Shown here one piece after another: positions 17,299 through 42,463 of a stretch of 64,000 bases of DNA. The stretch spans positions 1,024,001-1,088,000 of the forward strand of contig CAWGTN010000002.1 in assembly GCA_963825525.1 (NCBI GenBank), read 5' to 3'. Within the stretch, counting starts at the first letter, position 1. The number at the start of each line of letters is the position of its first letter. Made by a program: the position numbers and the translations under genes. This DNA comes from an uncultured Chloroflexia bacterium (GTDB taxonomy: Bacteria; Chloroflexota; Limnocylindria; QHBO01). Under the pieces are notes generated by a model, which worked only from the letters and a program-made list of their open reading frames with translations, was not told the DNA's origin and searched no databases.

Positions 17299-20200
17299 TC
17301 AGCGGTGGATCTTGATCTGGCCGTTGCGGATCGCCGCCGGCGCCCCGGTGTCGATGACGACGTCGCCCGTCGCCAGCTCCCAGATTCGGATCGCGAGGCG
17401 GTCCGGGCCATCGGTCACCGACACGCGGTAGGCGTAGCCCGAGGCACCGTTCACGGTACCGGTCCCGGCGTAGCGGGCGGCCGAGCCGTCCGGCTCCGCC
17501 ACCAGCCACTCCACGTTGGACGACACGAATGACATCCCGGGCAGGGTGAACGTCGTGTCGCCGCTCGGCACCAGGGACTGGTTCTGGTACTTCGCCGACA
17601 GCTCGAACGATGCGATCCCGGAGCCGGTCGTGATTCGTCCTCCGCCGGTCACCTTGCTGTGCAGGGCGGGGTTGAGACCCACGAGCACCGGATCGTGATC
17701 GGACGATCGGAACGGGTCAGGCGCATACAGGGTCGTCCGGTGGTTGGCCGACTTGAACTCCACGTTGTAGTCGAGGACGGGAGGCTCGTCGGTGTTGATG
17801 TGCCACGGGGCGGCATCGATGACCTGCGCCTGGAACGACGCCGTTGCCTGGGCATGATCCAGGTAGCCCGATGCCCCCTGGAACACGTAGGTGTACGCGG
17901 CGGGACCCTCGAATTCCCACAGCAGGTCGTGGAAGCCGGCATCGGCGAGGGCGTCGATCGGCGTCTCCATGGCGTAGCTGTTGAGGTCGCCGATGATCAC
18001 CGCATCGGGATCGCCGGACGCCGTCGGATCGGCCAGCAGCCAGTCCGCGAGGGCCTCAGCCGCCGAGGTGCGTGTCTCGTTGCAGTTGCCGCCCAGATGG
18101 TCCGGCTGGTCGTCACCGATCCCACAGCCCGAACCCTTCGACTTCAGGTGGTTGACGGCCACGGTGAAGACGGCGCCGGTCGCCGTCTCGGTGAACGACT
18201 GCGCGAGAGCCGGGCGGCTGCGCGTGTCGTCGAACCGCGGATCCACGCTCGAGTCGAGGATCGCAAAGGCTCCCGTCGGGCTCACCTCGGCCGGCTGATA
18301 GATGATCGCGACCGCGATCTCGTCGGTGCCGACGACGCCGGTGCGGACATAGTCGTACGTCCCCGCCCCGACGCTGGCGTTGAGGCCGGCCACCAGGGTC
18401 GCGATGGCCGGGGTCGCATCGGCCCCGTCATTCTCGATCTCCATGAGGCCGACCACCTCCGCATCCATGGCGGCTATGGCGGAGACGATCTTGGCGTGCT
18501 GCCGATCAAACTCGGCGGGGGTGTTCGCCCCACGGGCGGTGGGGAAGCCACCACCGGCACCATCACCGTTGAAGTAGTTCAGGACGTTGAAGGCGGCGAC
18601 CTGGATGCGCCCACCAACGGCCGGCGGAGCGGTCGGGCGGCTTGCCGCGCCGTCGAACGTGATCTCACCCAGCGGCTGGAGCCGATACGAGCCGAATCCC
18701 TCGTGCACGATGGCGGTCAGGCCCGAGACGGATGCCCCGGTTCGCAGGGTGTTGGTGGCGGACAGACCCCCGGTCGGATATCGGGTCGGATCCGCGTTCT
18801 GACTGGTGTTGGCGTCGTCCAGGATGATCCTGGTTCGCGCGTTGAGATCGGAGACCGCCAGCGCGTCCGCACCCGGCTCGGCCTGGTGGGTGCCCTGGTA
18901 CTGGCGACCGAGCGAGCTGAGCACGACTTCACCGAATCGGCCGAGGCTGAAGTTCTCGGTCACCGTCATGGTCTGGGTGAAGCTGGCCAGCATCCCCTCC
19001 CAGCGCTCCCAGTCCCCCGTCGCGCTGACGGGAAGCGTGATCTGGGCCGGCGACGCCGAGTATCCCGTGTCGCAGACGGTGACCCGGGTGCCGACCTGGT
19101 CGATCTGGGTCAGTCCGCTGAACTCCGTCGCGCGTCCCGTCACGCTGACGAGATCGCCGGGCGCGACCGGCACGCTGTTGGTGCCATCGAAGACGAAGAT
19201 GGCCTCCGAGGTCATCGGGTCCGCATCGGCGTCCGCATCCTCCTCCTGGACGAAGAAGCCACGGAGCGTCGGGGATGACCCCTGGTAGTCACCGACCACG
19301 ACACCCTGGACCGTCACCGTGGTCCCGGAGATCGGAGTGCTGGTGCCTGATCCCTGGACGTCGTGGATCAGGTGGGTTGCCGGCGCACAGAATGTGCCGA
19401 CACTGAAGGAGAACACGTGATCCGCGGCCATCGCGTCCGGAGGATCCTCGACGTCCTGGTCGCTCACGTTGGCGGCGACCACGGTGACCGTGCAGGTGTC
19501 CCCGTTCACGAAATTGGCGTCCGGGTCGAGCGAGAAGGTGCTCGGGCCGCCGGATGCGACCGCGGTGTGCGCCCCGCTCGTGCAACCGATGCTGAACCAC
19601 GCCCCGCTGACGTTGACGGGCTCGCTGAAGGTGATGTCGACGTTGGCATCGACCGTGACCCCGGTCGCACCGCTGGCAGGGGACGTGACACTCACCACGG
19701 GGGCCGCGTCGCCCTGGGTCACGGTGTGGGCTCCGAGGCCGTTGAACGTGTCGGTGGCGTAGCCGTCCCACTCAACCGACGGGTCGAACGCATCGGCGCC
19801 GTTGGTGTCGCCGGCGGCAATCGCCACCTTGCGTCGCAGGGTGTTGTCGGCGGTGCTGGTGAGGCCGGTGCCCCACTCCGTTCCCGGGTCGAAGCCGATC
19901 TGGCCGACGACGTCGAGGATGGTCGTCCCGTGGCGGAGGACGACGGCATCGTCGCCGTTGTACCAACTGGCTCCGTTCGTCTGGTCTGCCTGTGCAAGGA
20001 TCGCCGCGCTGGCAGCCGACTGGGCCAAAACGTACACATCACCGTTCGCCACGGATCCGGTCAGGTTGACCGTGGTACCGACGGTCACACCGCCGTTGAA
20101 GTACATCTGGACGCTGTAGGCCTCGGCGGCAAGGTCGATGGTCGCGCCGGTCCCGTTGTAGATCTCGAGCGCCTTGTTGTTGCTCGACCCCTCGATGTAC

Positions 20201-20337
20201 TCGCTGAAGAAGAGCTCGGACGAAGCGGCGCGGGTCGTCGCAGGGGCGACGAAGGGCACCAGCGCGGCGAGCACCAGCGCGAGCGTCGTGAGGAGCGCGA
20301 AGCCGCGCTGCATGGGCATCGAGACGGTCGTGGACAC
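17299..20337 (-). CDS. Secreted ExeM/NucH family endonuclease (lamin-tail, Ig-like, OB-fold, EEP and C-terminal beta domains)
   Basis: Signal peptide, LFFSEYIEGSSNNKALEIYN (LTD), IHDVQG, ERWEGM, AFNVLNYF, NHLKSKG, GDLNSY, LDH, SSDHDP. Confidence 0.93.
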   Translation of the reverse strand: MSTTVSMPMQRGFALLTTLALVLAALVPFVAPATTRAASSELFFSEYIEGSSNNKALEIYNGTGATIDLAAEAYSVQMYFNGGVTVGTTVNLTGSVANGDVYVLAQSAASAAILAQADQTNGASWYNGDDAVVLRHGTTILDVVGQIGFDPGTEWGTGLTSTADNTLRRKVAIAAGDTNGADAFDPSVEWDGYATDTFNGLGAHTVTQGDAAPVVSVTSPASGATGVTVDANVDITFSEPVNVSGAWFSIGCTSGAHTAVASGGPSTFSLDPDANFVNGDTCTVTVVAANVSDQDVEDPPDAMAADHVFSFSVGTFCAPATHLIHDVQGSGTSTPISGTTVTVQGVVVGDYQGSSPTLRGFFVQEEDADADADPMTSEAIFVFDGTNSVPVAPGDLVSVTGRATEFSGLTQIDQVGTRVTVCDTGYSASPAQITLPVSATGDWERWEGMLASFTQTMTVTENFSLGRFGEVVLSSLGRQYQGTHQAEPGADALAVSDLNARTRIILDDANTSQNADPTRYPTGGLSATNTLRTGASVSGLTAIVHEGFGSYRLQPLGEITFDGAASRPTAPPAVGGRIQVAAFNVLNYFNGDGAGGGFPTARGANTPAEFDRQHAKIVSAIAAMDAEVVGLMEIENDGADATPAIATLVAGLNASVGAGTYDYVRTGVVGTDEIAVAIIYQPAEVSPTGAFAILDSSVDPRFDDTRSRPALAQSFTETATGAVFTVAVNHLKSKGSGCGIGDDQPDHLGGNCNETRTSAAEALADWLLADPTASGDPDAVIIGDLNSYAMETPIDALADAGFHDLLWEFEGPAAYTYVFQGASGYLDHAQATASFQAQVIDAAPWHINTDEPPVLDYNVEFKSANHRTTLYAPDPFRSSDHDPVLVGLNPALHSKVTGGGRITTGSGIASFELSAKYQNQSLVPSGDTTFTLPGMSFVSSNVEWLVAEPDGSAARYAGTGTVNGASGYAYRVSVTDGPDRLAIRIWELATGDVVIDTGAPAAIRNGQIKIHR

Positions 20338-20654: not shown

Positions 20655-21100
20655 ACCATCGAAGCTCCACCCCCGTGCTGACGGGCATCGTGGCGGTGTT
20701 CCTCGCAGCGTGCGCCGCGCCCGGCGTCACCATCGATCCGTCATCCCTCGAGTCATTCCCGGCGGCTTCTACGCCCGCCAGCGCCAGCCACGGTGCCAGC
20801 CCGTCAGGAGCCGAGGCTGCCGATGCGCCGACGGGGATCCCGAACGAGGTGTGGACAGCGGTCCTCGACGATCTCAGCCGCCGTCTCCAGCGGCCGGTCA
20901 CCGACCCGGTGGTCACCTCGGCGGAACCCATGACCTGGAATGACGGATCCCTTGGCTGCCCGAAGCCAGGCCAGGTGTACACGCAGGCGCTGGTGGATGG
21001 CTTCCAGGTCGTGGTGGAGGTGGACGGCGAGCAGTTCGACTATCGATCCTCCGGCGGCGACAGCGTTCGCCTGTGCGAGGGCATGATCGAGGGCGGCTGA
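20651..21100 (+). CDS. Hypothetical lipoprotein
   Basis: Lipobox FLAAC; motif TWNDGSLGCPKPGQVYTQALVDGF. Confidence 0.8.
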   Translation: MNHRSSTPVLTGIVAVFLAACAAPGVTIDPSSLESFPAASTPASASHGASPSGAEAADAPTGIPNEVWTAVLDDLSRRLQRPVTDPVVTSAEPMTWNDGSLGCPKPGQVYTQALVDGFQVVVEVDGEQFDYRSSGGDSVRLCEGMIEGG

Positions 21101-21112
21101 CCGGACACAGAA

Positions 21113-21144
21113 AATGCCCCCGCCGGCGGACCGGCGGGGGCATT
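21113..21144 (-). terminator. Intrinsic terminator (possibly bidirectional)
   Basis: Perfect 14-bp stem AATGCCCCCGCCGG-CGGA-CCGGCGGGGGCATT with a U-run on the minus strand. Confidence 0.8.
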
Positions 21145-21173
21145 CCATTTGGACTCCCAGGGGCGTCGGACCG

Positions 21174-24100
21174 CTACTGGCCCGTTCTTGTTCCCCGGAA
21201 CATTGATGAGCTGGACCTCGGCCCCTGCCGCGTCATCGGGTGACACGATCATGACGCCGAGCGGCTTCTGCTTCGCGTAGGCGGTGGCGCTCATCGCCAG
21301 GTCGAAGCTATCGGTGCCACCGGGTGCGACCACCCGGAACGGGAACTCCTCGTCAGAGACCAGGGCCGGGTTCCACGGATCGAAGCGAGCCGTGCCGGAC
21401 ATGGCGTCCGAACCGGCGCCCTCGAGCGAGAAGCTCTGAACGCTATACGAGAAGCCGTTGTTCGCCGCAGTCAGGCCGAGATCGCTCGACAGCACGGGCA
21501 GCAGGTACGTGCTGCTGTCTGTCGGCGCCGACGCCCCGAACCCGGTGAACGACAGACCTCCCGTTGCCAGGTCGAGCACGAACGACGCCGGGATGCCGTT
21601 GAAGCTTCCCGTCGTGAGCGCGCCCAGGTCGAAGCCGATCACGACGTAGTCGGGCTGGCCATCTCCGTTGACGTCCACGATGACGTCGTACTCGTTGACG
21701 GCCGCGTTCGACCAACGGTCATGGGTGCTCAGCGCGAATACGATGAGCTCCTCGCCACCACCCAGGTCGAATGACTGGACGCCGGCCGCCTGCAGGTCGT
21801 AGCCCGAGCCTCCGAGCACTGCCTCGTTGACGTCGTTCTTGTCCTGCAGACCCCACTGGTACACGTCTGCCGAGCCGGCGATCACGCCGTTCGGATTCGT
21901 CACCGTGAACGTGGAGGCCTTGCCGTTCGCCGTGAGCTTGCCGGTCGTCTCGATGGTCGACAGTGCTCGCGGAACGAGCAGGTACGGAACACGCAGGGTG
22001 ACCGCGTCATTCGAGAGCACCACGTTGCCGCTCACCTGCCGGAAACCGGCAGAGTTGCCCGCCGAGGCGGCCGGGACATTGAGGGTCACCGCCAGGGTGA
22101 CCTCGCCGCCCGCCGGGACGAGCACGCTGCCCGACCCCGGGACCACCGAGTGCGTCCGGCTCCCCGGGCCGGCGACTGACGACGTGTTCAACGTGACGTC
22201 GGCGTCGCTGACGTTGCGCACGGTGATCTCGCGAGTCTCGCTGTGGTTCGCTCCCAGCTCATCGAACCCGAAGCTCAGGTTCGAATTGTGGAAGTCAGCA
22301 AGGCCGAGGTCCGGATTGCCGGCGACCATGTCGCCCAGTGCCACGACGGGCGTCGAGATCGCCGATGCCGGCGATACCAGCCCGGTTCCGGCTCGGGTAA
22401 CGAGGTATCCGGCCATTGCGTTCGGATCTCCCGTATTCGAGATGGCCGCCTTGACCTCCTCGACCGTCCAATCCGGATGTGCCTGGCGGACGAGGGCCGC
22501 GACACCCGCCACGTGCGGCGAGGCCATGGACGTGCCCGACAGGATGTGGCCCTTGGTACCGGTGCCGGCGGCCGTGGACATCGTGCTCACACCCGGAGCT
22601 GAAATGTCCGGCTTGAGCGCGCTGTCCCCGTTGCGGGGGCCGCCGGAGCTGAAGCTGGCGAACCCGCGGAAGCCGGGGTTCGGAAGGTCGACGATCGTCG
22701 TGGTCGCCGTTGCCGCGGCACGCAGGGCCGTTGCATCGGCGCTGTTGAGCGGACCCTGGACGCCGAGGAACGGAATCGTCACCTCGAACGTCTCGCCGGT
22801 GTCCGGGTTGCCGGCGATCGGCCCCTCGTACGGCGGGTAGCCGGCGCTCGAGTTGATCATGGCGACCGCATCGGCCCCGGCCTGCTGGCCGAACACCGCG
22901 CGGGCGACGCGGGCGCACGTTCCGCGCTCGGTCACCGCCAGGACGTTGTCGTCGCCCTCGCTGATCCCGTTACTGGTGAATGCCTCGACCGAGCAGCCGA
23001 GACGCTCGTTCTCCGCGGTTCCCGCAACATCCTGCAGCACCACGATGTCGTACACCGTGCCGTCCGCCGGAGCGACACCGTTGGCCGCGAGGGCCACGAT
23101 GCTGGTGCCGGTATTCAGCGCCAGCTGGACGCCGGTGAAGTTCTCGGTGCTATCGACCGCCGCGGTGGAAATGGCACCGGTGCCGGTTCCGGGCGAGCCG
23201 GTGATGTACTGCGACGAGCCGCTGTTGCCGGCCGACGTCACCACGATGACACCGCTGGCCGCGGCATTCGTCGAGGCAACGGCCGACGGGTCGTCGCCGC
23301 GCCCGAACGAGGACCCGAGCGACATGTTGATGACGTCCATGTCGTGATCAACGGCCCATTCGATGGCCTCGACGGTCACGTCCGTCGAACCATCGCAGCC
23401 GAAGACCCGAAGGCCGTAGAGCTCGGCCTGCGGCGCGACGCCGGGACCGATCTCGAAATCGTTGTCGTGAGTCGTGCTGTCGTACGGCCCGGCATACGTC
23501 GATCCGTCATCGAGCACGCCGAAGCCGGTCGCCGTCCCTGAGACGTGGGATCCGTGGCCGCTGCTGCCATCGGTGTAGACGCAGTCGAGCGGATCTGGGT
23601 CGGGATGCGGGATCAGCTGTGGCGATCCCTCGTCAGCGGCGGCGTCGTAGTCGTCGCCGACGAAGTCGTATCCGCCCTTGACCTTCGGAGCCGCGGCGCC
23701 GAACCAGGCGGCATCCTCCGCTCCGAGCGTCGTGTCGGCCGCATTGGCGGCCTCGTAGGCCTCGACCGTGCCCGGGCCACCGAAGTTGGCGTGGGTGTAG
23801 TCGACGCCGGTGTCGATGACGGCGATCTTGACGCCGGTCCCGGTGTAGCCGAGATCCTCCCAGACTCCGGCCGGAACGCCGAGGAAGGGAACGCTGGATT
23901 CGTTGCCGGGAGTCTGCAGCTGCAGTCCGCGCACGGCGATCACGTTTGGAAGGCCGGCCAGCGCCGCGACGTCCTTGCGCGCGACCTGGACCTTGATGCC
24001 GTTATAGGCGGACTGAAGCTGAGCGAGGACGCGGCCACCGTTGGCATTGATCTGGCCCTTGATGGCGTCCTGTCGGCCCTTCAGCTCGGCCTTGATCCGG

Positions 24101-24354
24101 GCGCGCTCGGCCTTGGAGAGCTCGCGATTCTTTGCGCGAGACTCGACGACCGCGACCGGGTCGCCACGGAGCTCGAGCATCACGTTGATGATGCGAGCGT
24201 CATCGACGGCGTTCGGAAGGATGTCGGGATCGATGGGGCCGGCGCCCGGCAGGGTGGGGAAGAATCGGTCGATCTGGGATGGGTCACGCGCCAGGGTGGT
24301 GCTCGGAATGAGGAGCGCCAACAGGGTCACGATGACCGTCAATCGTCGTAACAC
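21174..24354 (-). CDS. Secreted S8 subtilase (I9 propeptide, PA domain, Fn3-like C-terminal region)
   Basis: GGAGG RBS plus GTG at 24354, signal peptide, IAVIDTGVD, GHGSHVSG, SGTSMASPHVAG. The true stop is probably TAG at 21174-21176 (1-nt slip), otherwise the frame reads through the terminator to 21040. Confidence 0.9.
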
Positions 24355-24569
24355 GAATTCGGAAACCTCCGCTCGGGCAGGGAACAATTGCTCGACCGCA
24401 GGGCGGTCGATTGCGGAACAGGTCGATCCGAAACTGGGTCGATAGGCGACGTCCCCCGTGCAGGCTCGACCGAGCCAGGGCGTAGGCAAGGGTGAGGCGG
24501 TCGATGCTAGTCCCGCCGCTTCCGGCGCGTCAAATCTATGACGACCGTGGACGATCCACCGCGTTGACC

Positions 24570-25469
24570 CTATGCACCACCAAGCAGGCAACCGATCAAG
24601 CGAGTCACGGTCAGCGCCGAGAGCTGGTTGACGTCCCGATCGGGGACGAGCTCGGTGAACACGGCCCCGACCACGCGGTCGCGAACGCCGGCAAGGAGGT
24701 CCCACGCCTCGGGGTAGGTCAGGCCACCCGGCGTCAGTGCCGAAACAGCCGGTATGACCGAGGGGTCCATCCCGTCGCAGTCGAAGCTCACGAAGACCGA
24801 TGCGTCCGGCGGGCACATGCTCGAGCACCCAGGCGATGCCCCGCTCGCGAACATCCCGCGCGGTGATCAGCAGGTTGCCGGCGGCACGCGCCGCCTCGAC
24901 GTCCTCGCCGCGCGCCGACCCGACGCCCCGCAGGCCGACCTGGATGATGCGGGCCACGTGGTCCATCTCGGACGCGCGACGCATCGGCGACGAGTAGCCC
25001 TCGCGCACCCCGTCAACTTCGTCCCGGAAGTCGAGGTGGGCGTCGACCTGCAGGATCGTCAGCGGTCCGCGGTTCGCGAACGCGCGGAGGATCGGGATCG
25101 GGACGGAGTCGTCACCGCCCAGGCAGATCGGCATCGCGCCGCGGTCGAGGATGGCGGCCACGGCCTCGGTGATCCGCGCGCTGTTTCCCGGGCCGTCATC
25201 GGCGGCACCGGGGACGTCGCCGGCATCGGTGAACGGGCGCGGGCGCACGGCGCATCGGCGTCGAAGTCCCAGTGATCGAGGAAGCGGGCAAGGCCCGCAG
25301 CGCGGTCGCGGATCGCGGCGGGGGCATCGGCGCATCCGACGGTCGCGCCCGGGCTCGGGTAGGGCCATCCGAAGGGAACGCCGAGCACCGCGATCCCCGG
25401 CTCGAGGCGATCGAGGTCGGTCTCGATGGGCGCACCGAGGAATCCCACGTCGGGGCGGTTCGTTCTCAC
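24570..25469 (-). CDS. Agmatinase/arginase-family ureohydrolase (two frameshifts, about 25250 and 24810)
   Basis: Motifs split over three frames: LGVPFG..P.AIR; LGGDDS, VDAHLD, QVGLRG; SFDCDGMDP..TPGGL..ELVP. Confidence 0.82.
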
Positions 25470-25481
25470 GGAGGCAGCCTA

Positions 25482-25931
25482 TCAGCCGGCGGTGGCGCAC
25501 TCGCGACAGCGGCCGACCAGCGTGACGTGGCCGATGTCGATCTCGAACCCATCGTCCGCACGCAGGGCGTTCGCCACGGCATCGCCGCGTTCAGCGTCGA
25601 TCTCCCAGCTCCGCCCGCACTCGGCGCAGTGCAGGTGTCCGTGCTCGTCGAGCGGCCGGACGTGGAACTCCTCGTGGCCATCGGGTCCATGGCCGTGGCG
25701 GAGCAGCCCAAGCTCCTCGAGGACATCAAGCGTCCGATACACGGTCGAGGCGATCGTCTTCGCGTCGCGAGCCCGACAGCGTTCGAGCAGCTCCGCGCCG
25801 GAGATGTGGCCGTCGGCGCGTGCCAGCACCTCGATCACGGTTCGGCGCTGCGGCGTCCAGCGCAGGCCCCGAGCTCGCAGTCGTTCACCGACGGAATCCC
25901 ACGGTGCGGGGAGTGATTCGGTCGCGTCCAT
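25482..25931 (-). CDS. Fur-family metalloregulator (Nur/Zur-like)
   Basis: GLRWTPQRR, STVYRTL, HGHLHCAEC, GRCREC; divergent from a Ni/Co transporter. Confidence 0.9.
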   Translation of the reverse strand: MDATESLPAPWDSVGERLRARGLRWTPQRRTVIEVLARADGHISGAELLERCRARDAKTIASTVYRTLDVLEELGLLRHGHGPDGHEEFHVRPLDEHGHLHCAECGRSWEIDAERGDAVANALRADDGFEIDIGHVTLVGRCRECATAG

Positions 25932-34498: not shown

Positions 34499-35388
34499 GC
34501 GTCGAGCCGAACGCTCCGTTCGATCGCTTCGCCGAGCGCGTCGTCCAACGCCGACGAGAGGGCGAACACCGTCTCAATGGTTGCGCGGCTGCCGTCGCCG
34601 CTGCTGACGGCAAAGACGACGTCCCCGTCCCACATCGTGTGGGCCGGCCGGATCAATCGGGCCAGGGTGTCATGAGCCAGCCCCGCCAGCGCCTGGCATT
34701 GCGCCCGATCCAGTGCGGCATCCGTTGCCACGACCACGAGGACGGTGTTGCCGGCCACGGGCGACGGTGCCGCTGGATCCGCCGCGGCAAGGACGCGACC
34801 GTCGCGGGCCGTGACGTTGCCAAGGCAGTTGTTGGCGACCAGCGCACCCACCAGGTGGCCATCGGTCATCCGTCGCGCAGCGCTGCCGATGCCCGCCGGC
34901 ACGCCCGCCCCGCCGAGCTTTGCGACGGTGGCGCCGGTGCCTGCGCCCACCCGGCCCTCGAGCGGTCCCTCGTTCGCCTCGGCAGCCAGCGTGGCGAGAT
35001 GGCCGGCATCCGGGCCGGGGAACGCCGTCGGATCGCCGATCCCGAGGTCGTAGAGGATGGCGGCCGGCACGATCGGCACCGGTCGGACCGGCGTGACGAA
35101 GCCGACGCCGCGTTCCGCCAGGCGGCGCATGACCCCGTCCGCCGCACCGAGCCCGAACGCAGACCCGCCGGCAAGGCAGATGGCGTTCACCCGCTCGACG
35201 AGTGCCGTCGGACGAAGCAGGTCCGTTTCGCGGGTGCCCGGCGCGGAGCCGCGCACGTCGACCCCGGCGACCATCCCGTCGTCATCGGCAAGGATCACGG
35301 TGCAGCCGGTTGCCGCGGCGGTATCGGTCCAGTGGCCAACCCGGATGCCGGGCACGTCGCGGATGGTGAGGCGCGGCACGGTGCTCAT
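34495..35388 (-). CDS. P1/S58 (DmpA-like) peptidase
   Basis: IRDVPGIRVGH, DVRGSAPGTRETDLL, GGSAFGL, GNTVLVVVATDA, HTMWDGD. Confidence 0.88.
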   Translation of the reverse strand: MSTVPRLTIRDVPGIRVGHWTDTAAATGCTVILADDDGMVAGVDVRGSAPGTRETDLLRPTALVERVNAICLAGGSAFGLGAADGVMRRLAERGVGFVTPVRPVPIVPAAILYDLGIGDPTAFPGPDAGHLATLAAEANEGPLEGRVGAGTGATVAKLGGAGVPAGIGSAARRMTDGHLVGALVANNCLGNVTARDGRVLAAADPAAPSPVAGNTVLVVVATDAALDRAQCQALAGLAHDTLARLIRPAHTMWDGDVVFAVSSGDGSRATIETVFALSSALDDALGEAIERSVRLDA

Positions 35389-36170
35389 CGGCGCAACCAG
35401 TCGAGGACGAGCCGCAGGTAGTCGTCGAAACGGTCGCGGTGGACCGTGTGACCGGAGTCCGCGACGTGGATGCGGGAGTGCGGCGGCAGGGTGGACTCGA
35501 GCTGCCGTCGCGCGGCACCCCACAGGACGGATCGGTCCTCGGCGGCAAGGACGTAGAGCGCAGGCGGCGCGAGCTGTGGAGCGACCTCGAGCACGCGGGC
35601 GCCGGTGTGACGCCGGAACGACGCCATGAGCCCCGGCCGATCCGCCAGCTGCTTGCCCTCCACGTCCTGGCGCGCATCCTCCTCGAGCCAGGATGGATTC
35701 TCCGCGAGCTCGCGGGCGACCTCACCCTCCGGGTCATCGACCGCGGCGAGCAGCTCGCGCTCGAGATTCTCCTGCCAGTCGACGTCGTCGGCGCGGACCA
35801 CCGACGGCGGGTCCTCGAGGACGAGGCGTCCGATCAGCTCCGGCCGGAGGAAGGCGAGCTCCGCCGCCACCGCTCCCCCCAGGGAGTGCCCGATGAGGGC
35901 ATCGACGTGCCCACCCATGCCCTCGATGAGCGATCCGACATCGGCCGCCAACTGGCCGACGGTCGCGTAGCCGTCAATCCGTGGGCTGTGGCCATGCCCG
36001 CGCAGGTCGACCGCAACGACGTGCCAGCCCGCGCTGGCGAGGGCCGGACCCACTCGCCACCAGGTGCGCCACCACCCCGTCACGCCATGGACGAGCACCA
36101 CGGTCGGCGCCGATCCGTCGGCATCTTCCGCCGGCCATTCGTGGGTGGCGAGGGCAAGCGGCTCGTTCAT
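35385..36170 (-). CDS. Alpha/beta hydrolase
   Basis: LVHG, DLRGHGHS, GHSLGG, GHTVH. Confidence 0.9.
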   Translation of the reverse strand: MNEPLALATHEWPAEDADGSAPTVVLVHGVTGWWRTWWRVGPALASAGWHVVAVDLRGHGHSPRIDGYATVGQLAADVGSLIEGMGGHVDALIGHSLGGAVAAELAFLRPELIGRLVLEDPPSVVRADDVDWQENLERELLAAVDDPEGEVARELAENPSWLEEDARQDVEGKQLADRPGLMASFRRHTGARVLEVAPQLAPPALYVLAAEDRSVLWGAARRQLESTLPPHSRIHVADSGHTVHRDRFDDYLRLVLDWLRR

Positions 36171-36219
36171 CAGCCGATGCTACGGCACCCGCGGTACGTG
36201 GCGTGCAAGGGCTGGCGAC

Positions 36220-37878
36220 ATGAGCCTCGAAGCGACCAGCGACCTGTGGTGGAAGAACGCGATCATCTACTGCGTCGACACCCAGGCCTTTCTCGACACG
36301 AACGGCGACGGCGTCGGCGACCTCGACGGGCTGACCCAGCGCATCGACTACCTGGCCGGCCTGGGCGTGACCTGCCTGTGGCTGATGCCGATCTACCCGT
36401 CCCCTGAACGCGACTACGGCTACGACGTGGCCGACTACTACGGCGTGGCCGACAAGTACGGCAGCCTGGGCGACCTCGTCGAGCTGGTGCGAACCGCGAA
36501 GGAGCGCGGCATCCGGGTCATCGCCGACCTCGTGGTCAACCACACCTCGGTCGACCATCCCTGGTTCCAGATGGCGCGCCAGGGCCACCCGATCTACCGC
36601 GACTTCTACGTCTGGGCCGATGAGAAGCCGCCGAACGCCGAGGAAGGAATCATCTTCCCGGGCAAGCAGGAGAGCATCTGGTCCTACGACCGAGCGGCGA
36701 AGCGCTGGTACATGCACCGCTTCTATCCGTTCCAGCCGGACCTCAACATCAACAACCCGCTCGTGCGCAACGAGATCCACAAGGTCATCGGCTTCTGGCT
36801 CGAGCTCGGGCTGTCGGGATTCCGCGTGGATGCCGTGCCGTTCCTCATCGAGCAGGTCAGCCCGGGCAACCCCGCCGTCACCGACCCGCACGACTACCTC
36901 CGCGACCTCGGCGACTTCATGGTTCGGCGCCGCGGCGACGCCATGCTGCTGGCCGAGGCGAACGAACCGGCTGACAAGCTCGCGACCTACTTCGGTGAGC
37001 GCGGCAACCAGATGGACATGCTGTTCAGCTTCATCACCAACCAGGCGCTCTACCTGTCGTTCGTGCGCGGCGACGCCACGCCGGTCGCCGATGCGCTGCG
37101 CTCGCTGCCGCCCATCCCGTCGCAGGCCCAGTGGGCGAACTTCATCAAGAACCACGACGAGGCGTCGCTCGACAAGCTGTCCGACTCGGAGCGCGAGGAG
37201 GTCTTCGCGGCCTTCGCCCCGAAGAAGTCGATGCGCCTGTTCGACCGTGGCATCCGGCGGCGCTTCCCACCGATGGTCGACGGCGACCGGCGTCGCATGG
37301 AGCTCGCGTACAGCCTGCTGTTCAGCCTGCCGGGCACGCCTGTCCTGTTCTACGGCGAGGAGATCGGCCTGGGTGACAACCTGGCCATGACCGACCGCGA
37401 GGCGGTGCGCCTGCCGATGCAATGGTCGGATCGGCCCGGCGGCGGGTTCACGACCGCGGACGAGGGCGACCTGCCGCGACCGATGCTCAAGGACGGACCG
37501 TTCGGCTATCCCAAGCTCAACGTCGAGGAGCAGCGCCGCGACCCGGGCTCGTTCCTGAACTGGACCGAGCGCGCGATCCGGACGCGCAAGGAATGGCCGG
37601 AGTTCGGCTGGGGCACCTGGCAGGTCGTCGGAACGCGCAATCCCGCGGTGCTGGCCCACGTCGCCACCTGGGACGGTGCGTCCGTGCTGGCGGTCCACAA
37701 CTTCTCCGACGCGCCGGCCAAGCTGACAGTGCAGATCCCACCGGACGCGCGTGGTGAACGCTGGCGGCACATCTTCGGGGCCGGCGACGAAGAGGCACCC
37801 GAGATCTCGGGCGATCGGCTCACCTGCGAGATGGCGCCCTACGGCTATCACTGGTACGGACGAAAGGAGGGCGTCTGA
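36220..37878 (+). CDS. GH13 alpha-amylase family, trehalose synthase (TreS)-like
   Basis: WWKNAIIY, DGVGDLDGL, DLVVNHTS, QPDLN, GFRVDAVP, LAEAN, NHDE, YGEEIG. Confidence 0.88.
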   Translation: MSLEATSDLWWKNAIIYCVDTQAFLDTNGDGVGDLDGLTQRIDYLAGLGVTCLWLMPIYPSPERDYGYDVADYYGVADKYGSLGDLVELVRTAKERGIRVIADLVVNHTSVDHPWFQMARQGHPIYRDFYVWADEKPPNAEEGIIFPGKQESIWSYDRAAKRWYMHRFYPFQPDLNINNPLVRNEIHKVIGFWLELGLSGFRVDAVPFLIEQVSPGNPAVTDPHDYLRDLGDFMVRRRGDAMLLAEANEPADKLATYFGERGNQMDMLFSFITNQALYLSFVRGDATPVADALRSLPPIPSQAQWANFIKNHDEASLDKLSDSEREEVFAAFAPKKSMRLFDRGIRRRFPPMVDGDRRRMELAYSLLFSLPGTPVLFYGEEIGLGDNLAMTDREAVRLPMQWSDRPGGGFTTADEGDLPRPMLKDGPFGYPKLNVEEQRRDPGSFLNWTERAIRTRKEWPEFGWGTWQVVGTRNPAVLAHVATWDGASVLAVHNFSDAPAKLTVQIPPDARGERWRHIFGAGDEEAPEISGDRLTCEMAPYGYHWYGRKEGV

Positions 37879-38840
37879 TGGCCCCGATCATCGGCTTCCA
37901 CGCCAGCCACGAGCAGTTCCGGCCGGATCGGCTGCTGCGCCTGGTGCAGTCGGCGGAGGCGGCGGGCTTCGGGGCCGCGATGTGCTCGGATCACTGGGCG
38001 CCGTGGAGCGAGGCCCAGGGCGAGTCTGGCTTCGCATGGTCGTGGCTGGGGGCGGCGCTCCAGGCCACCTCGCTCCAGTTCGGCGTGGTGAACGCTCCCG
38101 GCCAGCGCTACCACCCGGCGATCATCGCCCAGGCCGCCGCAACCCTGAACGTCATGTTCCCCGAGCGCTTCTGGATCGCGGTCGGATCCGGCCAGCTGCT
38201 GAACGAGCACATCACCGGCGAGCGCTGGCCGGCGAAGCCGGAGCGCAACGAGCGGCTGCGCGAAAGCGCTGACATCATGCGTCGTCTGTGGGACGGTGAG
38301 ACGGTCTCACATGACGGCCACGTCACGGTCTCCGAGGCAACGCTCTGGACGCGTCCCGAGCGGCCGACGATGCTCGTCGGCGCGGCCGTGACCCCGGAGA
38401 CCGCGGGCTGGGTCGCCGAATGGGCCGATGCACTGATCACCGTGGTCCAGGCCGATGACCAGCTGGATCGCATCGTCGACGCGTTCCGGTCCAACGGTGG
38501 CGAGGGCAAGCCGATGTACCTCCAGGTGCATCTTGCCTACGCCCCCACCGAATCCGAGGCGCGCGACGCAGCCTTCGCCCAGTGGGGCCAGAACTGCCTG
38601 CCGAACTCGGTCATGACCGACCTGTCCCACCCGTCGCAGATCAAGGATGCGTCGCAGCACGTGGCCCCACAGGACCTCGATGACGCGGTGCGCATCTCGT
38701 CGGACACTGGGCAGCACGTCGAGTGGCTGCAGCGCGAGCTTGCGCGCGGGTTCGATCGGCTCTACCTCCACGAGGTCGGCCCTGAGCAGGAACGGTTCGT
38801 CGAGACCTTCGGCCGGGATGTGCTCCCCCGCCTTCGCTGA
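37878..38840 (+). CDS. LLM-class flavin-dependent oxidoreductase (TIGR03885-like)
   Basis: IGFHASHEQF, MCSDH, QGESGFAWSWLGAA, QRYHPAIIAQA, NEHITG. Confidence 0.88.
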   Translation: MAPIIGFHASHEQFRPDRLLRLVQSAEAAGFGAAMCSDHWAPWSEAQGESGFAWSWLGAALQATSLQFGVVNAPGQRYHPAIIAQAAATLNVMFPERFWIAVGSGQLLNEHITGERWPAKPERNERLRESADIMRRLWDGETVSHDGHVTVSEATLWTRPERPTMLVGAAVTPETAGWVAEWADALITVVQADDQLDRIVDAFRSNGGEGKPMYLQVHLAYAPTESEARDAAFAQWGQNCLPNSVMTDLSHPSQIKDASQHVAPQDLDDAVRISSDTGQHVEWLQRELARGFDRLYLHEVGPEQERFVETFGRDVLPRLR

Positions 38841-38857
38841 AGGTCTGCGATCATGGC

Positions 38858-39658
38858 ATGACCATGGCCGCACTCGGAGCGAAGGAACGGGCGAAGCTCC
38901 CGGATTCCGCCTTCGCCTACATCGACGCCGACAAGCGTCGCCTGCTCCCGATTCACGACGAGCCGCACGTCCGCAATGCGCTGGCGCGATTCAACCGAGT
39001 CGTCTTCGAGGACGAGGAGGCGCGCGATCGTGCCCGTTCGCGGCTGCTCAAGGCGGCAAAGCGTCACGGCCTGGTCCCGGTCGGGTTCATCGAGGGCCAG
39101 CTCCGACCCAAGCTGCCGACCGGTCAGCTCACGCTTCTGTTCGCCGATGTCGAGAACTCGAGTCGCCTGACCTCGGAGCTCGGAGAGCGATACGGCTCCC
39201 TCCTCAATGCGGTTCGGCGCATCGAGCGCACGGCCATTCGCCGCACCGGCGGCTTCGAGGTGGATGCCAGGGCCGATGAATTCTTTGCCGTGTTCGAGCG
39301 GGCCGCCGATGCCCTGGAAGCATCGATCGCCATGCAGCGCGCATTCGGGTCGCACGCATGGCCCGACGAGGCCTCGGTCCGCGTCAGGATCGGGCTGCAC
39401 ACCGGACGCCCGACCCGCACGCCGGGCGGCTACCAGGGGATCGCGGTCAATGCCGGCGCCCGGCTGTGCTCGTGCGGCCACGGGGGCCAGATCCTCGTCT
39501 CGCGTACCGCCCGGGCGGCGCTGGGCGAGGACACTACGGTCGAGCTGCGACATCTCGGGACGTATCGGCTGCGCGGCATCCCCGACGAGCACGAGATCTA
39601 CCAGGTCGTGGCTAAGGATCTCCTCGACGGATTCCCGGCACTGCGCATCGAGGCTTAG
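38858..39658 (+). CDS. Class III adenylate/guanylate cyclase with an N-terminal DUF6582-like domain
   Basis: N-terminal LPDSAFAY..LPIHDEPHVRNALARFN; cyclase motifs TLLFADVENSS, ADEFFAVF, VRIGLHTG, VNAGARL, HGGQILVS. Confidence 0.85.
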   Translation: MTMAALGAKERAKLPDSAFAYIDADKRRLLPIHDEPHVRNALARFNRVVFEDEEARDRARSRLLKAAKRHGLVPVGFIEGQLRPKLPTGQLTLLFADVENSSRLTSELGERYGSLLNAVRRIERTAIRRTGGFEVDARADEFFAVFERAADALEASIAMQRAFGSHAWPDEASVRVRIGLHTGRPTRTPGGYQGIAVNAGARLCSCGHGGQILVSRTARAALGEDTTVELRHLGTYRLRGIPDEHEIYQVVAKDLLDGFPALRIEA

Positions 39659-40520
39659 CCTCCGGCCGGTCCGAGCTCACGGATTGGCACGCCGTTCACC
39701 TCGCTGAGCGAGTGGACACCGAATGCTCCGTCGAGCGAGCAGGCTGGATCGGGCTCGTTCGCCCAATTTGCACCTTCCCCGAGACCATACTCACCGCCGC
39801 CGAATCTCACATGGTCTCCGTGACGGAGCTCGATGGCCACGTCGCCGACTGGATCCCAGAACGTGATCGACTCGCGATCGACATTCCAGCGCACCTGGGC
39901 GCTGCGGAAGATCATGGTCGCGCCGCTCACGCTGACGCACTCGGCGTCGACCCGCAGCAAACCGCCGAATGCCGCCAAGTCCCCGCTGTCGGCCTCCGCC
40001 TCGACGACGGCAAGCGGACCCCACGGGCCATCTCCGAACTCCGGCACCGGGCGGACAGGGACCGGTGGCAAACGCTCGACGCGCTCCTCGATCTCCATCG
40101 CCGACATGAGGAGTGACAACCGCTCGAACATCGGGTAGCCAGAGGTCTCGATCGCGGCGAGCAAATCGCCCGAGAGCATCGGGCTCAGTGTTTCGGCGAA
40201 GTCGGCATACAGGCATTCGCCACCCAGGCCGGCAGTGAACACGTGGTCAACGGTGATCCCCGCGAGTGACTCGGTCGATCGTTCGATGAGGTCATGAGCT
40301 GCGCCCGCGGAGCCCGCGGTCGCAATCCGAGGAATCCAGGCGTCCGATGAGCTCGCGCGAGAATTCCGCCGCAACTTCGTCGCATGTCGTTCCCACAAAG
40401 CCCGGCGCGATGGCTGATCATCGGGGCTTCAGTCCCCACCGTGGAGGGCGTCGGGGCATCGGCGGCGCAGGCGCTCACGAGGAGCACGATTCCCAAGATT
40501 CCCCAGCTAGCGCGCCGCAC
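39655..40520 (-). CDS. Hypothetical lipoprotein (frameshift about 40380-40410)
   Basis: GTG start 6 nt after TACACT, LLVSAC lipobox; the body lies in a second frame (39655-40398). Confidence 0.55.
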
Positions 40521-40552
40521 GGCAGCAGTGTACTGGCGCTGATGAGGGGAGC

Positions 40553-40628
40553 TGGTCGGGGCGAGAGGACTCGAACCTCCGACCTCGTCGTCCCGAACGA
40601 CGCGCGCTACCTACTGCGCCACGCCCCG
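40553..40628 (-). tRNA. tRNA-Pro (anticodon CGG)
   Basis: CGGGGCG acceptor stem, anticodon arm CGTCG-TTCGGGA-CGACG, GGTTCGAGTCC T-arm, encoded CCA. Confidence 0.97.
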
Positions 40629-40700
40629 ACCGAAGAGTCGCATCCTAGCAGGCGGGCCGTGGGGGGTCCAACGTACCCACTGGCCGGCGGACACGGAAAT

Positions 40701-40762
40701 GTCCCGAAGGAACCGTGGCGACCGTTGATGTGATCTCGGACCGCCGACTGCCCCTTCGGGAC
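40701..40762 (-). ncRNA. Candidate small hairpin RNA with its own promoter
   Basis: TTGATC-18nt-CATGAT ends 6 nt before a 62-nt hairpin closed by perfect GTCCCGAAGG/CCTTCGGGAC. Confidence 0.4.
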
Positions 40763-40849
40763 GACATCATCATGGCGCCCGACCTGGCGCGTGATCAATC
40801 CCCTTTGTCCACGAGATCGAGCGGCCGATCAGGACTTATCCACACCCCA

Positions 40850-42463
40850 TCAAGATCCGCCTGACGTCGGCAGCTCGACCAGGCGAGCGTCCAGGATGCC
40901 GTCGATGTCGCGAATCTGCCGGAGGACGGCATCGGTGACCGGATCGTCGACCGAGACGAACATCATCGCCTCGCCGCGCTCGGACATGCGTGACAGCTCG
41001 AGCGAGCTGATGTTGATCTCCGCATCGGCCAGGAGGGTGCCCACCGATCCGACGATGCCGGGCTTGTCGCGGTGCCGGGTCATGAGCATGAGGCCGATGA
41101 GCTCGGCATCGATGGCGAAGCCGTCGAGTCCCGCGAGGTGTGGCCGGCCGTGGGCGGTGGACCCGGCGAGGGTGAGGATCGGCTCGCCGTCCGCCGGCCC
41201 GATCGAGAGCGCGACGAGCGATGCCCACGGCTCCGACGCGGCGGTTCGCTCCTCGCGGATCGTCATCCCTCGCTCGTGGGCCACCAGGTCGGCATTCACC
41301 GCGTTCACGCGCTGATCGGTGACGGCCTCCAGGATGCCGGCAATCGCCGCCGTCCGGATCGGGGCGCAGTCGCCCGCGGCGATCTCGCCGGCATACGAAA
41401 GGGACAGCGTGTCGAATGCGCCCGGGGCGAGCTGGCGCGCCAGGAGCGCGAGCCGCCGGCCGAGCTCGACGTACGGGCGCAGCTTCTGCCCCGACTCCGG
41501 GGCCAGGGCCGGAGCGTTCACCGCGTGCGGTGGCGTCACGCCGGCCAGTGCCATGAGCACCTGCTCGGCCATCTCGGTGCCGACCCGGTCCTGTGCCTCG
41601 GCCGTCGACGCGCCGAGGTGGGGCGTCAGGATGACGTTGGGAGCCGAGCGCAGCGGGTTGTCCTGGGCCATCGGCTCCGAGGTGAAGACGTCCACGGCAG
41701 CCCCGGCCAGGTGTCCGGACGCCAGCGCGTCGGCCAGGGCCGCCTCGTCGATGATCCCGCCGCGCGCCACGTTGAGCACGAATGCCCCCGGCTTGGTGGC
41801 CTCCAGCTGCGCCCTCCCCAGCAGCCCCCGGGTGTGGGTCGACAGCGGCGTGTGGACGGTGATGACGTCCGAGCGATGCAGCAGCTCGGCCATCCCGACC
41901 AGTCGTGCGCCGGCCTCGCCGACCTGGTCCTCGGTCAGGTACGGGTCGCTGGCGATCACCTTCATCTCGAACCCGAGCGCACGCCGCGCAACCGCCTTGC
42001 CGATCTTCCCGAGCCCCACGATGCCGAGCGTCTTGCCGCGCAGCTCGCGCCCGGTATGCGCGCCACGCTCCCACTCCCCGCGTCGCAGTGACGCATCCGC
42101 GGCCGGGATGCGCCGCAGGAGCGCGAGCATCAGCGCCATGGTGTGCTCGGCGGCCGCGACCGTGTTGCCGGTGGGCGCGTTGACCACCATGACGCCGGCC
42201 CGCGTCGCCGCGTCCACGTCGATGCGGTCGATGCCGACGCTGGCCACGCCGACCACGCTCAATCGCGGCGCCGCCGCCGCCAGGAGCTCCGCGTCGACGC
42301 GGGTCTGCGACCGCACGATGAGCGCGTCCCAGCCGCCGCCCTCCGACAGCGCGCTCAGCAGGGCGTCGCGCTCGAGGCCGGGACGCAGCACGGTCTCGTG
42401 GGCGGCCCGGATCAGCTCGATTCCGGGGTCCGCCACCGGCTCGACGACGAGGATGCGTGCCAT
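40850..42463 (-). CDS. serA: D-3-phosphoglycerate dehydrogenase (long form with ACT domain)
   Basis: LIVRSQT, NAPTGNTVAAAEH, GLGKIG, NVARGG, TPHLGAST.EAQ, HRDKPGIVG. Confidence 0.95.
   Translation of the reverse strand: MARILVVEPVADPGIELIRAAHETVLRPGLERDALLSALSEGGGWDALIVRSQTRVDAELLAAAAPRLSVVGVASVGIDRIDVDAATRAGVMVVNAPTGNTVAAAEHTMALMLALLRRIPAADASLRRGEWERGAHTGRELRGKTLGIVGLGKIGKAVARRALGFEMKVIASDPYLTEDQVGEAGARLVGMAELLHRSDVITVHTPLSTHTRGLLGRAQLEATKPGAFVLNVARGGIIDEAALADALASGHLAGAAVDVFTSEPMAQDNPLRSAPNVILTPHLGASTAEAQDRVGTEMAEQVLMALAGVTPPHAVNAPALAPESGQKLRPYVELGRRLALLARQLAPGAFDTLSLSYAGEIAAGDCAPIRTAAIAGILEAVTDQRVNAVNADLVAHERGMTIREERTAASEPWASLVALSIGPADGEPILTLAGSTAHGRPHLAGLDGFAIDAELIGLMLMTRHRDKPGIVGSVGTLLADAEINISSLELSRMSERGEAMMFVSVDDPVTDAVLRQIRDIDGILDARLVELPTSGGS

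Follow-up and report, generated by a model that had tools for sequence, protein, structure and literature searches.

A DUF6582 domain joined to a class III nucleotide cyclase with an unusual base-selecting pocket: a candidate one-component signalling protein of soil bacteria

The fusion gene and its relatives

The window analysed here is a stretch of 64,000 nucleotides (nt) from the genome of an uncultured Chloroflexia bacterium (Chloroflexota; Limnocylindria), and the gene in question is an open reading frame (ORF) at 38858..39658 on its plus strand, which joins an N-terminal DUF6582 domain to a class III nucleotidyl cyclase in 266 amino acids (aa) counted from the first ATG. In family alignments the N-termini of the relatives coincided with M3, the product of the second in-frame ATG (38864, 'MAxL'). 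Because all relatives begin there, the true start is probably ATG 38864, giving a protein of 264 aa, the length of most relatives. All features of the ORF given below lie on the plus strand. The DUF6582 domain (Pfam PF20223; residues 13-72, 38894..39073) scored 30.4 bits against a cut-off of 27.3, and the catalytic domain (PF00211 Guanylate_cyc; residues 88-250, 39119..39607) 45.1 bits against 21.9. They are connected by a conserved linker peculiar to fused forms (residues 71-90, 39068..39127; 'G-l-V-P-V-G-F-I-x-G-Q-L-R-P...L-P-x-G').

Sequence alignment to the cyclase Ma1120 of M. avium placed the first metal-binding Asp at D97 (FADVE; codon 39146..39148), the second at D140 (ADEF; 39275..39277) and the transition-state Asn/Arg motif at N198-A-G-A-R202 (VNAGAR; 39449..39463). 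The two base-specifying sites were assigned to D136 (39263..39265), in the column of Ma1120 Lys101 where guanylate cyclases have Glu, and to G191 (39428..39430), in the column of Ma1120 Asp157 and followed by Y192.

A first-pass annotation, made from the DNA alone, had described an ORF in which DUF6582 and a class III cyclase are combined, with both metal Asp residues, an N-x3-R motif and no known sensor domain. The ORF was found with exactly that position and sequence in the six-frame ORF list, both domains passed the profile check, and all the residues named are present. Pfam and NCBIfam searches of the ORF detected no sensor domain beyond DUF6582 and the cyclase; the NCBIfam matches were below threshold and led to the cyclase-containing families LipJ, mod_pep_cyc and TOMM kinase/cyclase. 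The helices in the AlphaFold2 (AF2) models of the protein were short, of amphipathic length only.

A search over 5.8 billion proteins yielded 6018 relatives at E ≤ 0.001 among 8000 candidates scored. The best 120 of them were 70-95% identical to the fusion and 258-298 aa long, except P0034 (218 aa) and P0117 (466 aa); both precomputed Pfam domains were present in 115, and PF00211 alone in P0006, P0009, P0034, P0049 and P0106. Among species-level genomes, taken one per species, at least 600 pattern matches were obtained, of which at least 424 were confirmed as relatives of the fusion. The labels of the metagenome-assembled genomes carrying the best 80 loci were Candidatus Limnocylindria/Chloroflexota, Actinomycetota (Thermoleophilia, Gaiellales, Solirubrobacterales and Acidimicrobiia), Candidatus Dormiibacterota, Methylomirabilota/Rokubacteria and, once, Acidobacteriota.

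In a sample of 301 genomes drawn evenly from the organism's own phylum, a full-length profile match starting at residue 13 or earlier was present in 11, and DUF6582 shared an open frame with a cyclase match in about 15; four of the latter (G017, G070, G256 and G288) had additional sequence between the two domains. Half of the sampled genomes of the organism's own family (8/16) carried the fusion, which indicates vertical conservation within the family. A related strain was represented by a soil-metagenome DNA contig of 1483 nt with 24 differences, which covered positions 38100-39580 and crossed two junctions, that between the N-domain and the cyclase and that between the fusion and the gene upstream, which encodes a luciferase-like monooxygenase (LLM)-class FMN-dependent oxidoreductase. 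The fusion is judged to be real, ancient and under selection. It is no misassembly, a possibility named in the first-pass annotation: at least 424 species genomes from five soil phyla encode relatives, and this contig crosses both junctions.

The cyclase domain and its base-selecting pocket

The nearest solved structures by sequence were Ma1120 (E 1.7e-18; profile E 9e-33), the trypanosomal GRESAG 4.x enzymes and Rv1900c/LipJ. The catalytic domain was modelled by AF2 with a predicted local distance difference test score (pLDDT) of about 90 or more, and Foldseek returned 206 matches from the PDB at E ≤ 0.001. Against Ma1120 the TM-score normalised to the target (TMt) was 0.91-0.94 and the root mean square deviation (rmsd) 1.8-2.9 Å, one match having E 1.4e-15, TMt 0.92 and rmsd 2.5 Å; against Rv1900c TMt was 0.89-0.93. 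Ma1120 (4wp3) and Rv1900c (1ybt) were thus the best matches in both sequence and fold, and they have the metal Asp pair and the transition-state Arg in common with the fusion. In Rv1900c the cyclase is fused to an alpha/beta-hydrolase, and DUF6582 is present in neither protein.

The base sites were fixed from HMMER alignments by the three columns in which the 'KDA to EGY' triple mutant of Ma1120 departs from the wild type: K101, D157 and A167 of Ma1120 align with D136, G191 and A201 of the fusion. According to PMC4215837, K101 and D157 are the ATP-specifying residues of Ma1120, and guanylate cyclases have Glu at site 1 and C, S, T, H, A or G at site 2, the pair in Cya2 being Glu-Gly. In an alignment of 59 fusions from five phyla, to which all residue counts given for the family refer, site 1 was Asp in 54 and Ser in 5 and never Lys or Glu, while site 2 was invariably Gly (59/59) and followed by Tyr (Y192; 59/59). 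Asp136/Gly191 is therefore not the adenylate cyclase combination of Lys at site 1 with Asp or Thr at site 2. Compared with guanylate cyclases, Gly fits at site 2, but Asp or Ser stands at site 1 where Glu is expected. The pair matched no characterised adenylate or guanylate pair that could be documented.

The nearest analogy is the Glu/Gly pocket of guanylate cyclases, with the acid at site 1 shortened. Cya2 of Synechocystis (Glu-Gly) and the 'KDA to EGY' variant of Ma1120 (5d0g) resemble the fusion in combining Gly at site 2 with an acidic site 1. All documented guanylate cyclases have Glu at site 1, however, and the Asp of the fusion (Ser in 5/59) falls short of it by one methylene group. 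The Tyr position of Cya2 is Ala201 in the fusion, and Cya2 is distant by sequence (profile E 1.1e-4). The residues that select pyrimidines or GTP in Pycsar and Pucsar cyclases (BcPycC Y50/D94/R97, EaPycC F100/R142/Q144 and PfPucC E118/K195), offered no direct analogy. Since the pocket is Asp/Gly and not Lys/Asp, the product cannot be assumed from sequence to be cyclic AMP (cAMP). The unspecified 'cNMP' (cyclic nucleoside monophosphate) of the first-pass annotation was an apt wording, and the non-canonical base residues themselves go beyond its reading.

The genome of the organism contained 13 cyclase-domain matches, and site 1 was Lys in 7, His in 1, Gly in 1 and Asp in 3; the match at C1:2812 was partial. 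Asp was found in the fusion, at C3:74339 and at C2:406459. The protein at C3:74339 is a 485-aa TPR-cyclase (C3:73376-74830) with the same Asp/Gly-Tyr pocket and the same G-Y-Q-G and V-H-x-x-A-R motifs. In the phylum sample the nearest paralogues of the cyclase domain (profile residues about 84-265, E 1e-52 to 1e-67) were located in open frames spanning about 880-1100 aa, of which a genome often has several. The paralogue of this kind in the organism's own genome (899 aa, C2:1899957-1902653) consists of a cyclase, an NB-ARC/AAA-type STAND NTPase and TPR repeats, with Gly/Thr at the two base sites. These STAND-NTPase/TPR cyclases have the GHGGQIL motif and a non-Lys site 1 in common with the fusion. 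Their domain order differs: the cyclase is N-terminal and followed by the NTPase and the repeats, whereas in the fusion a small N-domain comes first and nothing follows the cyclase. The Asp/Gly trait is accordingly not peculiar to the DUF6582 fusions; it appears to be common to the fusion family and its nearest STAND/TPR paralogues, and these comparisons place the cyclase in a large, biochemically uncharacterised subfamily.

D97, D140 and R202 were each retained in 59/59 fusions, so that the catalytic machinery is intact: the two metal Asp residues and the transition-state Arg, together with the Asn in the protein studied. Position 198 was Asn in 24/59, this protein included, and His in 35/59. 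The position of the phosphate-binding Lys, in the last hairpin, was variable (R 29, Q 10, H 6, A 6, P 4, S 2, E 1 and K 1 of 59). Because the base pair is non-canonical, this Lys site is variable and Asn198 is often His, altered or weak catalysis is possible. The extreme case would be a catalytically feeble or dead pseudo-cyclase, acting as a nucleotide-binding or scaffolding module that makes no second messenger. The two non-canonical base residues, the Lys and Asn positions and the modest Pfam score (45 bits) are in line with it. It is nevertheless considered quite unlikely, given that the metal Asp pair and the transition-state Arg are conserved without exception across five phyla and that non-canonical pairs are compatible with activity elsewhere: Rv0386 (Gln/Asn) and Rv1900c (Asn/Asp) reportedly still make cAMP. 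Moreover, Ma1120 has Ala at the transition-state Asn position and is active (PMC4215837).

The product would be a 3',5'-cNMP of uncertain base. Formation of cAMP through the non-canonical pocket is tentatively placed first, cGMP or a mixed purine product comes second as a further possibility, and something else, or very low activity, is unlikely. The genome has receivers for such a nucleotide, as it contained 9 cNMP_binding matches, 8 of them over the cut-off.

The N-terminal domain and its other homes

When AF2 was run with an alignment of fusions only, the N-domain was modelled with pLDDT values of 49-69 and no reliable domain-domain contact. With a 61-sequence alignment to which stand-alone and phage copies had been added, the mean pLDDT rose to 83.8, with about 90 or more over residues 10-70. 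In the predicted fold a short helix (8-12) is followed by a beta-hairpin (19-22, 28-31), after which come two helices (35-47, 53-69), and the models thus describe a compact, confidently folded domain. Its invariant motif is LPI-H/N-D-x-x-H-V-R-N-A-L-x-R-F, in which D34, H37, R39, N40 and R44 were present in 59/59 fusions and position 33 was His in 39/59 and Asn in 20/59. P74, G76, F77, P87 and G89 of the linker were invariant as well, and the conservation of the N-domain core and linker in the 59 fusions was at least equal to that of the cyclase. The LPIHD..HVRNA..RF core could be aligned with stand-alone and phage members of DUF6582.

A sequence-profile search of solved structures gave nothing before residue 84 or so except spurious long spans. 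Foldseek of the N-domain against the PDB reached a best E of only 2.7, and VIA-align against 48,161 chains found none at Z ≥ 5, the best (Z 4.3) being a generic helical match; the absence of a solved look-alike does not prove the fold new. In a library of predicted viral structures the best matches (probability about 1.0, TM-score normalised to the query 0.54-0.69, 22-33% identity) fell within large phage proteins, among them one that carries the name 'Prohead protease'. The nearest clusters of residues 1-85 in the ESM Atlas were DUF6582 (score 0.77), which serves as a lead only. Two other assignments were considered and dropped. A zincin-like metal site at HDxxH was ruled out by the Asn that replaces H33 in 20/59 fusions, and for a likeness to ribbon-helix-helix or ChaB proteins there was no Pfam match even at E ≤ 1.

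DUF6582 occurs mostly as a free protein of about 83 aa or as a module within the head-protease proteins of phages, and the statement in the first-pass annotation on small stand-alone and phage head-associated proteins was borne out by the database and phage searches. The organism's own genome encodes a free protein of 83 aa (C2:398930-399148); a search with it gave at least 4000 proteins at E ≤ 0.001, the top 120 of which were 78-99% identical. PF20223 was found in 67/301 genomes of the phylum sample (66/300 without the unpublished genome G227), mostly in small open frames.

Viral contigs gave 243 pattern matches, 144 of which were confirmed. In the 53 phage loci examined the domain lay inside frames of 187-674 aa, longer than 300 aa in 48. 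PHROGs profiles were run on 37 phage carriers: 16 matched head maturation protease or major head protein families, 22 matched phrog_16160, a functionally unannotated family of 69 positions that corresponds to DUF6582, and 3 matched nothing. One representative, P0239, carries two tandem DUF6582 copies ahead of a Mu-like gpI domain. In phages the domain is thus an accessory module of head-protease and scaffold proteins, and this suits a plain role in assembly or interaction just as well as one in sensing.

A second fused form was recovered with PP2C phosphatases, in 27 clusters of 322-344 aa (P0140 and P0391-P0416, the latter 63-71% identical to P0140). PF20223 and PF07228 were both present in 26/27 of these clusters, so P0140 is not a chimera. 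The next-best matches after the DUF6582-PP2C clusters were GAF-SpoIIE phosphatases. After the domain the PP2C fusions carry the linker of the cyclase fusions ('KKYGIVPIGFMTGQL'; 'GIVPxGFxTGQL'), which free and phage copies are without. DUF6582 plus linker therefore occupies the GAF slot in a family of RsbU-like PP2C phosphatases and is a module shared between two outputs. As the same domain and linker head phosphatases whose paralogues carry GAF, its reading as an input module gains support.

Variants with an extra domain of about 110 aa, without a Pfam match, between linker and cyclase were also found (P0187, P0188, P0169 and P0179). P0179 has a C-terminal MDMPI_N domain in addition. Many rows of the catalogue of 50%-identity representatives were truncated or frameshifted, and apparent fusions of DUF6582 to pieces of Lon_C, CheB, Orn_DAP_Arg_deC, AMP-binding_C_3, Trans_reg_C, HTH_67 and Bax1-I were discarded as untrustworthy.

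A quick tree of 74 N-domain sequences (85 columns including the linker, midpoint root, support by the Shimodaira-Hasegawa-like approximate likelihood ratio test (SH-aLRT) only) placed all 21 cyclase-fused and all 13 PP2C-fused N-domains in one clade with 100% SH-aLRT, the PP2C-fused rows nesting among the cyclase-fused ones. Phage rows lay outside this clade, as did six true stand-alone rows, which grouped together with 97% support. The fused clade also contained P0232 and P0237, two short calls that are probably truncated genes; P0232 has the fusion-type linker. The tree is supportive, not proof, of a single fused lineage, as the shared linker helps to form the clade. The lineages also differ in the charge of the core (residues 8-72): the median isoelectric point (pI) was 10.8 with a net charge of +6 in the fused lineage, 9.7 in phage copies and 6.4 in free copies. 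Compared with free and phage DUF6582, the fused lineage thus adds the conserved linker and is strongly basic.

The N-domain could alternatively be a constitutive dimerisation or stability tag without signal input, and the cyclase would then be basal and unregulated, its level being set by transcription. Class III cyclases require dimerisation, in head-to-tail arrangement, and the phage copies sit in self-assembling head-protease and scaffold proteins. The structure comparisons of the N-domain brought up no ligand, ligand pocket, partner or known sensor fold, and the monomeric full-length AF2 model gave it low confidence. The invariant polar, surface-type residues D34, H37, R39, N40 and R44 nevertheless exceed what a hydrophobic zipper needs, and the N-domain alone is predicted to fold confidently as a monomer. 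Its occupation of the GAF sensor's place relative to the PP2C paralogues and the insertion of the domain of about 110 aa between it and the cyclase in the variants likewise speak against a mere tag, which we consider unlikely.

In this genome the free DUF6582 gene lies beside a gene for Ku (C2:399202-399750), which matched PF02735 with 175.7 bits when the genome was searched and with 172.8 bits as an ORF. The ATG of the Ku ORF overlaps the stop of the DUF6582 ORF, and the two are translationally coupled. For a comparison 20 stand-alone loci of the phylum sample were fetched and 19 scanned, L170 having no callable neighbours near the match. Ku adjoined the stand-alone gene in 0/19 of these loci, and the neighbours were heterogeneous. 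In L167 the gene adjoins a 460-aa class III cyclase of the alpha/beta-hydrolase type (L167:2980-5010), in L169 a co-directional gene for a CRP-type cNMP-binding regulator at a distance of about 60 nt (L169:2968-3939), and in L176 a convergent LLM gene. The two of 19 loci with cNMP genes point in the same direction as the fusion, as an anecdotal observation.

There is a slim chance that DUF6582 recognises one cellular target common to all its settings and linked to DNA ends or to phage DNA as it enters. The free form would act with Ku, and phages would load copies into their heads within the protease/scaffold proteins, for delivery along with the DNA. The basic fused lineage with its linker would convert the state of that target into a second messenger through the cyclase or into a partner-switching signal through PP2C. 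If so, the fusion would be a DNA-damage- or DNA-entry-sensing cyclase with a non-canonical nucleotide product.

Neighbouring genes and the proposed mode of action

Upstream of the fusion on the plus strand lie a TreS-like gene of the alpha-amylase family (36064..37878) and the LLM gene (37878..38840). The LLM gene matched TIGR03885 with 493.5 bits against a cut-off of 398.7. The amylase-family gene matched TIGR02456 with 567.7 bits, and as this is below the cut-off of 678.35 it is called TreS-like, not TreS. An alpha/beta-hydrolase gene at 35385-36170 is divergent and overlaps the annotated N-terminus of the TreS-like protein. Because the family match begins at residue 62, the true start of the TreS-like gene is probably later than annotated.

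The three genes are co-directional, with an overlap between the TreS-like stop and the LLM start. The LLM stop (TGA, 38838-38840) is followed by a gap of 17 nt to the first ATG of the fusion or 23 nt to ATG 38864; the first-pass annotation had given the two upstream genes correctly, and its gap of 17 nt is exact for the first ATG. No terminator-like site was found on the plus strand between the three genes, and LLM and the fusion are probably co-transcribed here, though LLM is no conserved partner.

This arrangement is what would be expected if the fusion, as last gene of a TreS-like/LLM operon, regulated trehalose/alpha-glucan or redox metabolism. Its distribution argues otherwise. Among the best 80 related loci a TreS-like gene was near the fusion in 7, LLM in 8 and an alpha/beta-hydrolase gene in 11, all in close Limnocylindria relatives; TreS-like accompanied LLM in 7 of the 8 loci having LLM, and in several close relatives the hydrolase gene directly abuts the fusion instead. 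All-against-all clustering of the flanking ORFs of the 80 loci gave no neighbour in more than 15 loci and cross-phylum sharing in at most 8, and the large clusters were limited to close relatives. The TreS-like/LLM adjacency is hence read as local synteny, and a role in this metabolism is very unlikely.

An anti-phage sensor-cyclase of the Pycsar or Pucsar kind, with an N-domain that recognises a phage head protein carrying the same domain and with LLM as effector, was weighed as well. Phage head-protease proteins do carry DUF6582, the LLM gene is immediately upstream, and the Pucsar preprint mentions rare loci with luciferase-like monooxygenases as candidate effectors. The defence searches gave a different picture. 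PADLOC on the fusion produced only a PycC match of 14.5 bits (E 0.0035), in which no stretch passed alone, so the fusion does not match the PycC-type cyclase profile. On the free DUF6582 protein and P0140 it found nothing, and on the fusion's neighbours nothing except a GlgB-type match for the amylase. No effector combining a cyclic-nucleotide-binding domain (CNBD) with TIR or with a transmembrane region (CNBD-TIR or CNBD-TM) adjoined the fusion, the neighbours being the LLM oxidoreductase, the amylase-family enzyme, an unannotated ORF and serA. The window is made up of housekeeping DNA (panC, panB, serA, an S58 peptidase and a nonulosonic-acid/polysaccharide cluster). LLM adjoins the fusion in no more than 8/80 loci, and the fusion gene is vertically conserved in the organism's family. 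An anti-phage system of this kind is therefore extremely unlikely.

Some further features of the window were recorded. The stretch 3' of the fusion (39655-40850) is variable. It contains a minus-strand ORF of 247 aa (39655-40398) whose G+C content at third codon positions (0.76) was the joint-lowest of the called ORFs; searches of this ORF with Pfam, NCBIfam and PADLOC drew a blank, and none of the 80 related loci has a homologue of it. An overlapping candidate ORF of 111 aa (40185-40520) has a lipoprotein-like N-terminus. On the minus strand, a 1486-aa ORF (21043-25500) combines an arginase-family domain (88-229) with a subtilase S8 domain (554-1025), an unusual pairing, and a 1012-aa ORF (17302-20337) with lamin-tail, Big_5 Ig-like and endonuclease/exonuclease/phosphatase domains probably encodes a secreted nuclease or phosphatase.

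With moderate confidence, the whole protein is read as a soluble one-component signalling enzyme in which DUF6582 and the linker are the regulatory input to a class III cyclase; a recognised output domain, the cyclase, is present, as such a protein should have. The C-terminal domain, of the Ma1120/Rv1900c type, would work as a head-to-tail homodimer, and the DUF6582 domain with the 'PVGF-x-x-GQL' segment of the linker would control the formation or the geometry of this catalytic dimer. The cue may be a macromolecular partner or self-association, which is favoured over a small ligand because of the phage-scaffold setting, the coupling of the free form to Ku and the basic surface of the fused form.

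The first-pass annotation had proposed an N-domain that gates the cyclase in a one-component protein, in a setting of either stress and trehalose physiology or phage sensing. The gating part fits the module shared with PP2C, the single fused clade and the conserved core and linker. Neither setting found support in the neighbourhood analysis: TreS-like and LLM genes accompany the fusion in close relatives only, the phage setting was left with the PycC match of 14.5 bits in a housekeeping window, and the survey of neighbours revealed none conserved beyond 15/80 loci.

Several observations weigh against a regulated, catalytically competent enzyme. They are the low N-domain confidence and missing domain contacts of the fusion-only model, the equally good fit of an assembly or interaction role in phages, the contribution of the linker to the fused clade, and the non-canonical base pair, variable Lys site and frequent His198, which leave room for weak or altered catalysis. 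Three soil metatranscriptome runs were uninformative: they gave short pieces of about 90% identity, which matched the TreS-like and LLM genes in conserved regions and left the cyclase gene almost without cover.

A precedent for the proposed gating is Rv1264, in which an N-terminal autoinhibitory, pH-sensing domain reportedly gates a class III cyclase that keeps Lys/Asp. Like the fusion it is a soluble cyclase with a compact N-terminal domain and a linker, and to judge from the titles of the entries its holoenzyme structures represent inhibited and active states. The N-domains are unrelated, however, and for the fusion gating is a proposal. The RsbU-type/GAF-SpoIIE PP2C phosphatases provide a sister family with DUF6582 and the linker; as the output domain differs, they bear on the role of the N-module and not on the cyclase.

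Class III cyclases are the main bacterial makers of cAMP and cGMP, and their accessory domains set what each senses. The cyclase superfamily is known, and databases already list the architecture, both Pfam domains included, under the name 'adenylate/guanylate cyclase domain-containing protein'. No paper came up in a full-text search for 'DUF6582', and no description of the domain, the fusion or an Asp/Gly class III pocket was found in the searchable literature (subscription journals lie outside its coverage). The analysis adds a previously undescribed candidate input module, abundant among the soil members of Chloroflexota, Actinomycetota, Dormibacterota and Methylomirabilota and employed a second time with PP2C as the output. 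The invariant Asp/Gly pocket, which the fusions have in common with STAND-linked cyclases, marks a big uncharacterised subfamily whose product is unreadable from sequence. The fusion offers a tractable entry into a domain family that counts thousands of functionally unassigned small proteins and phage head modules.

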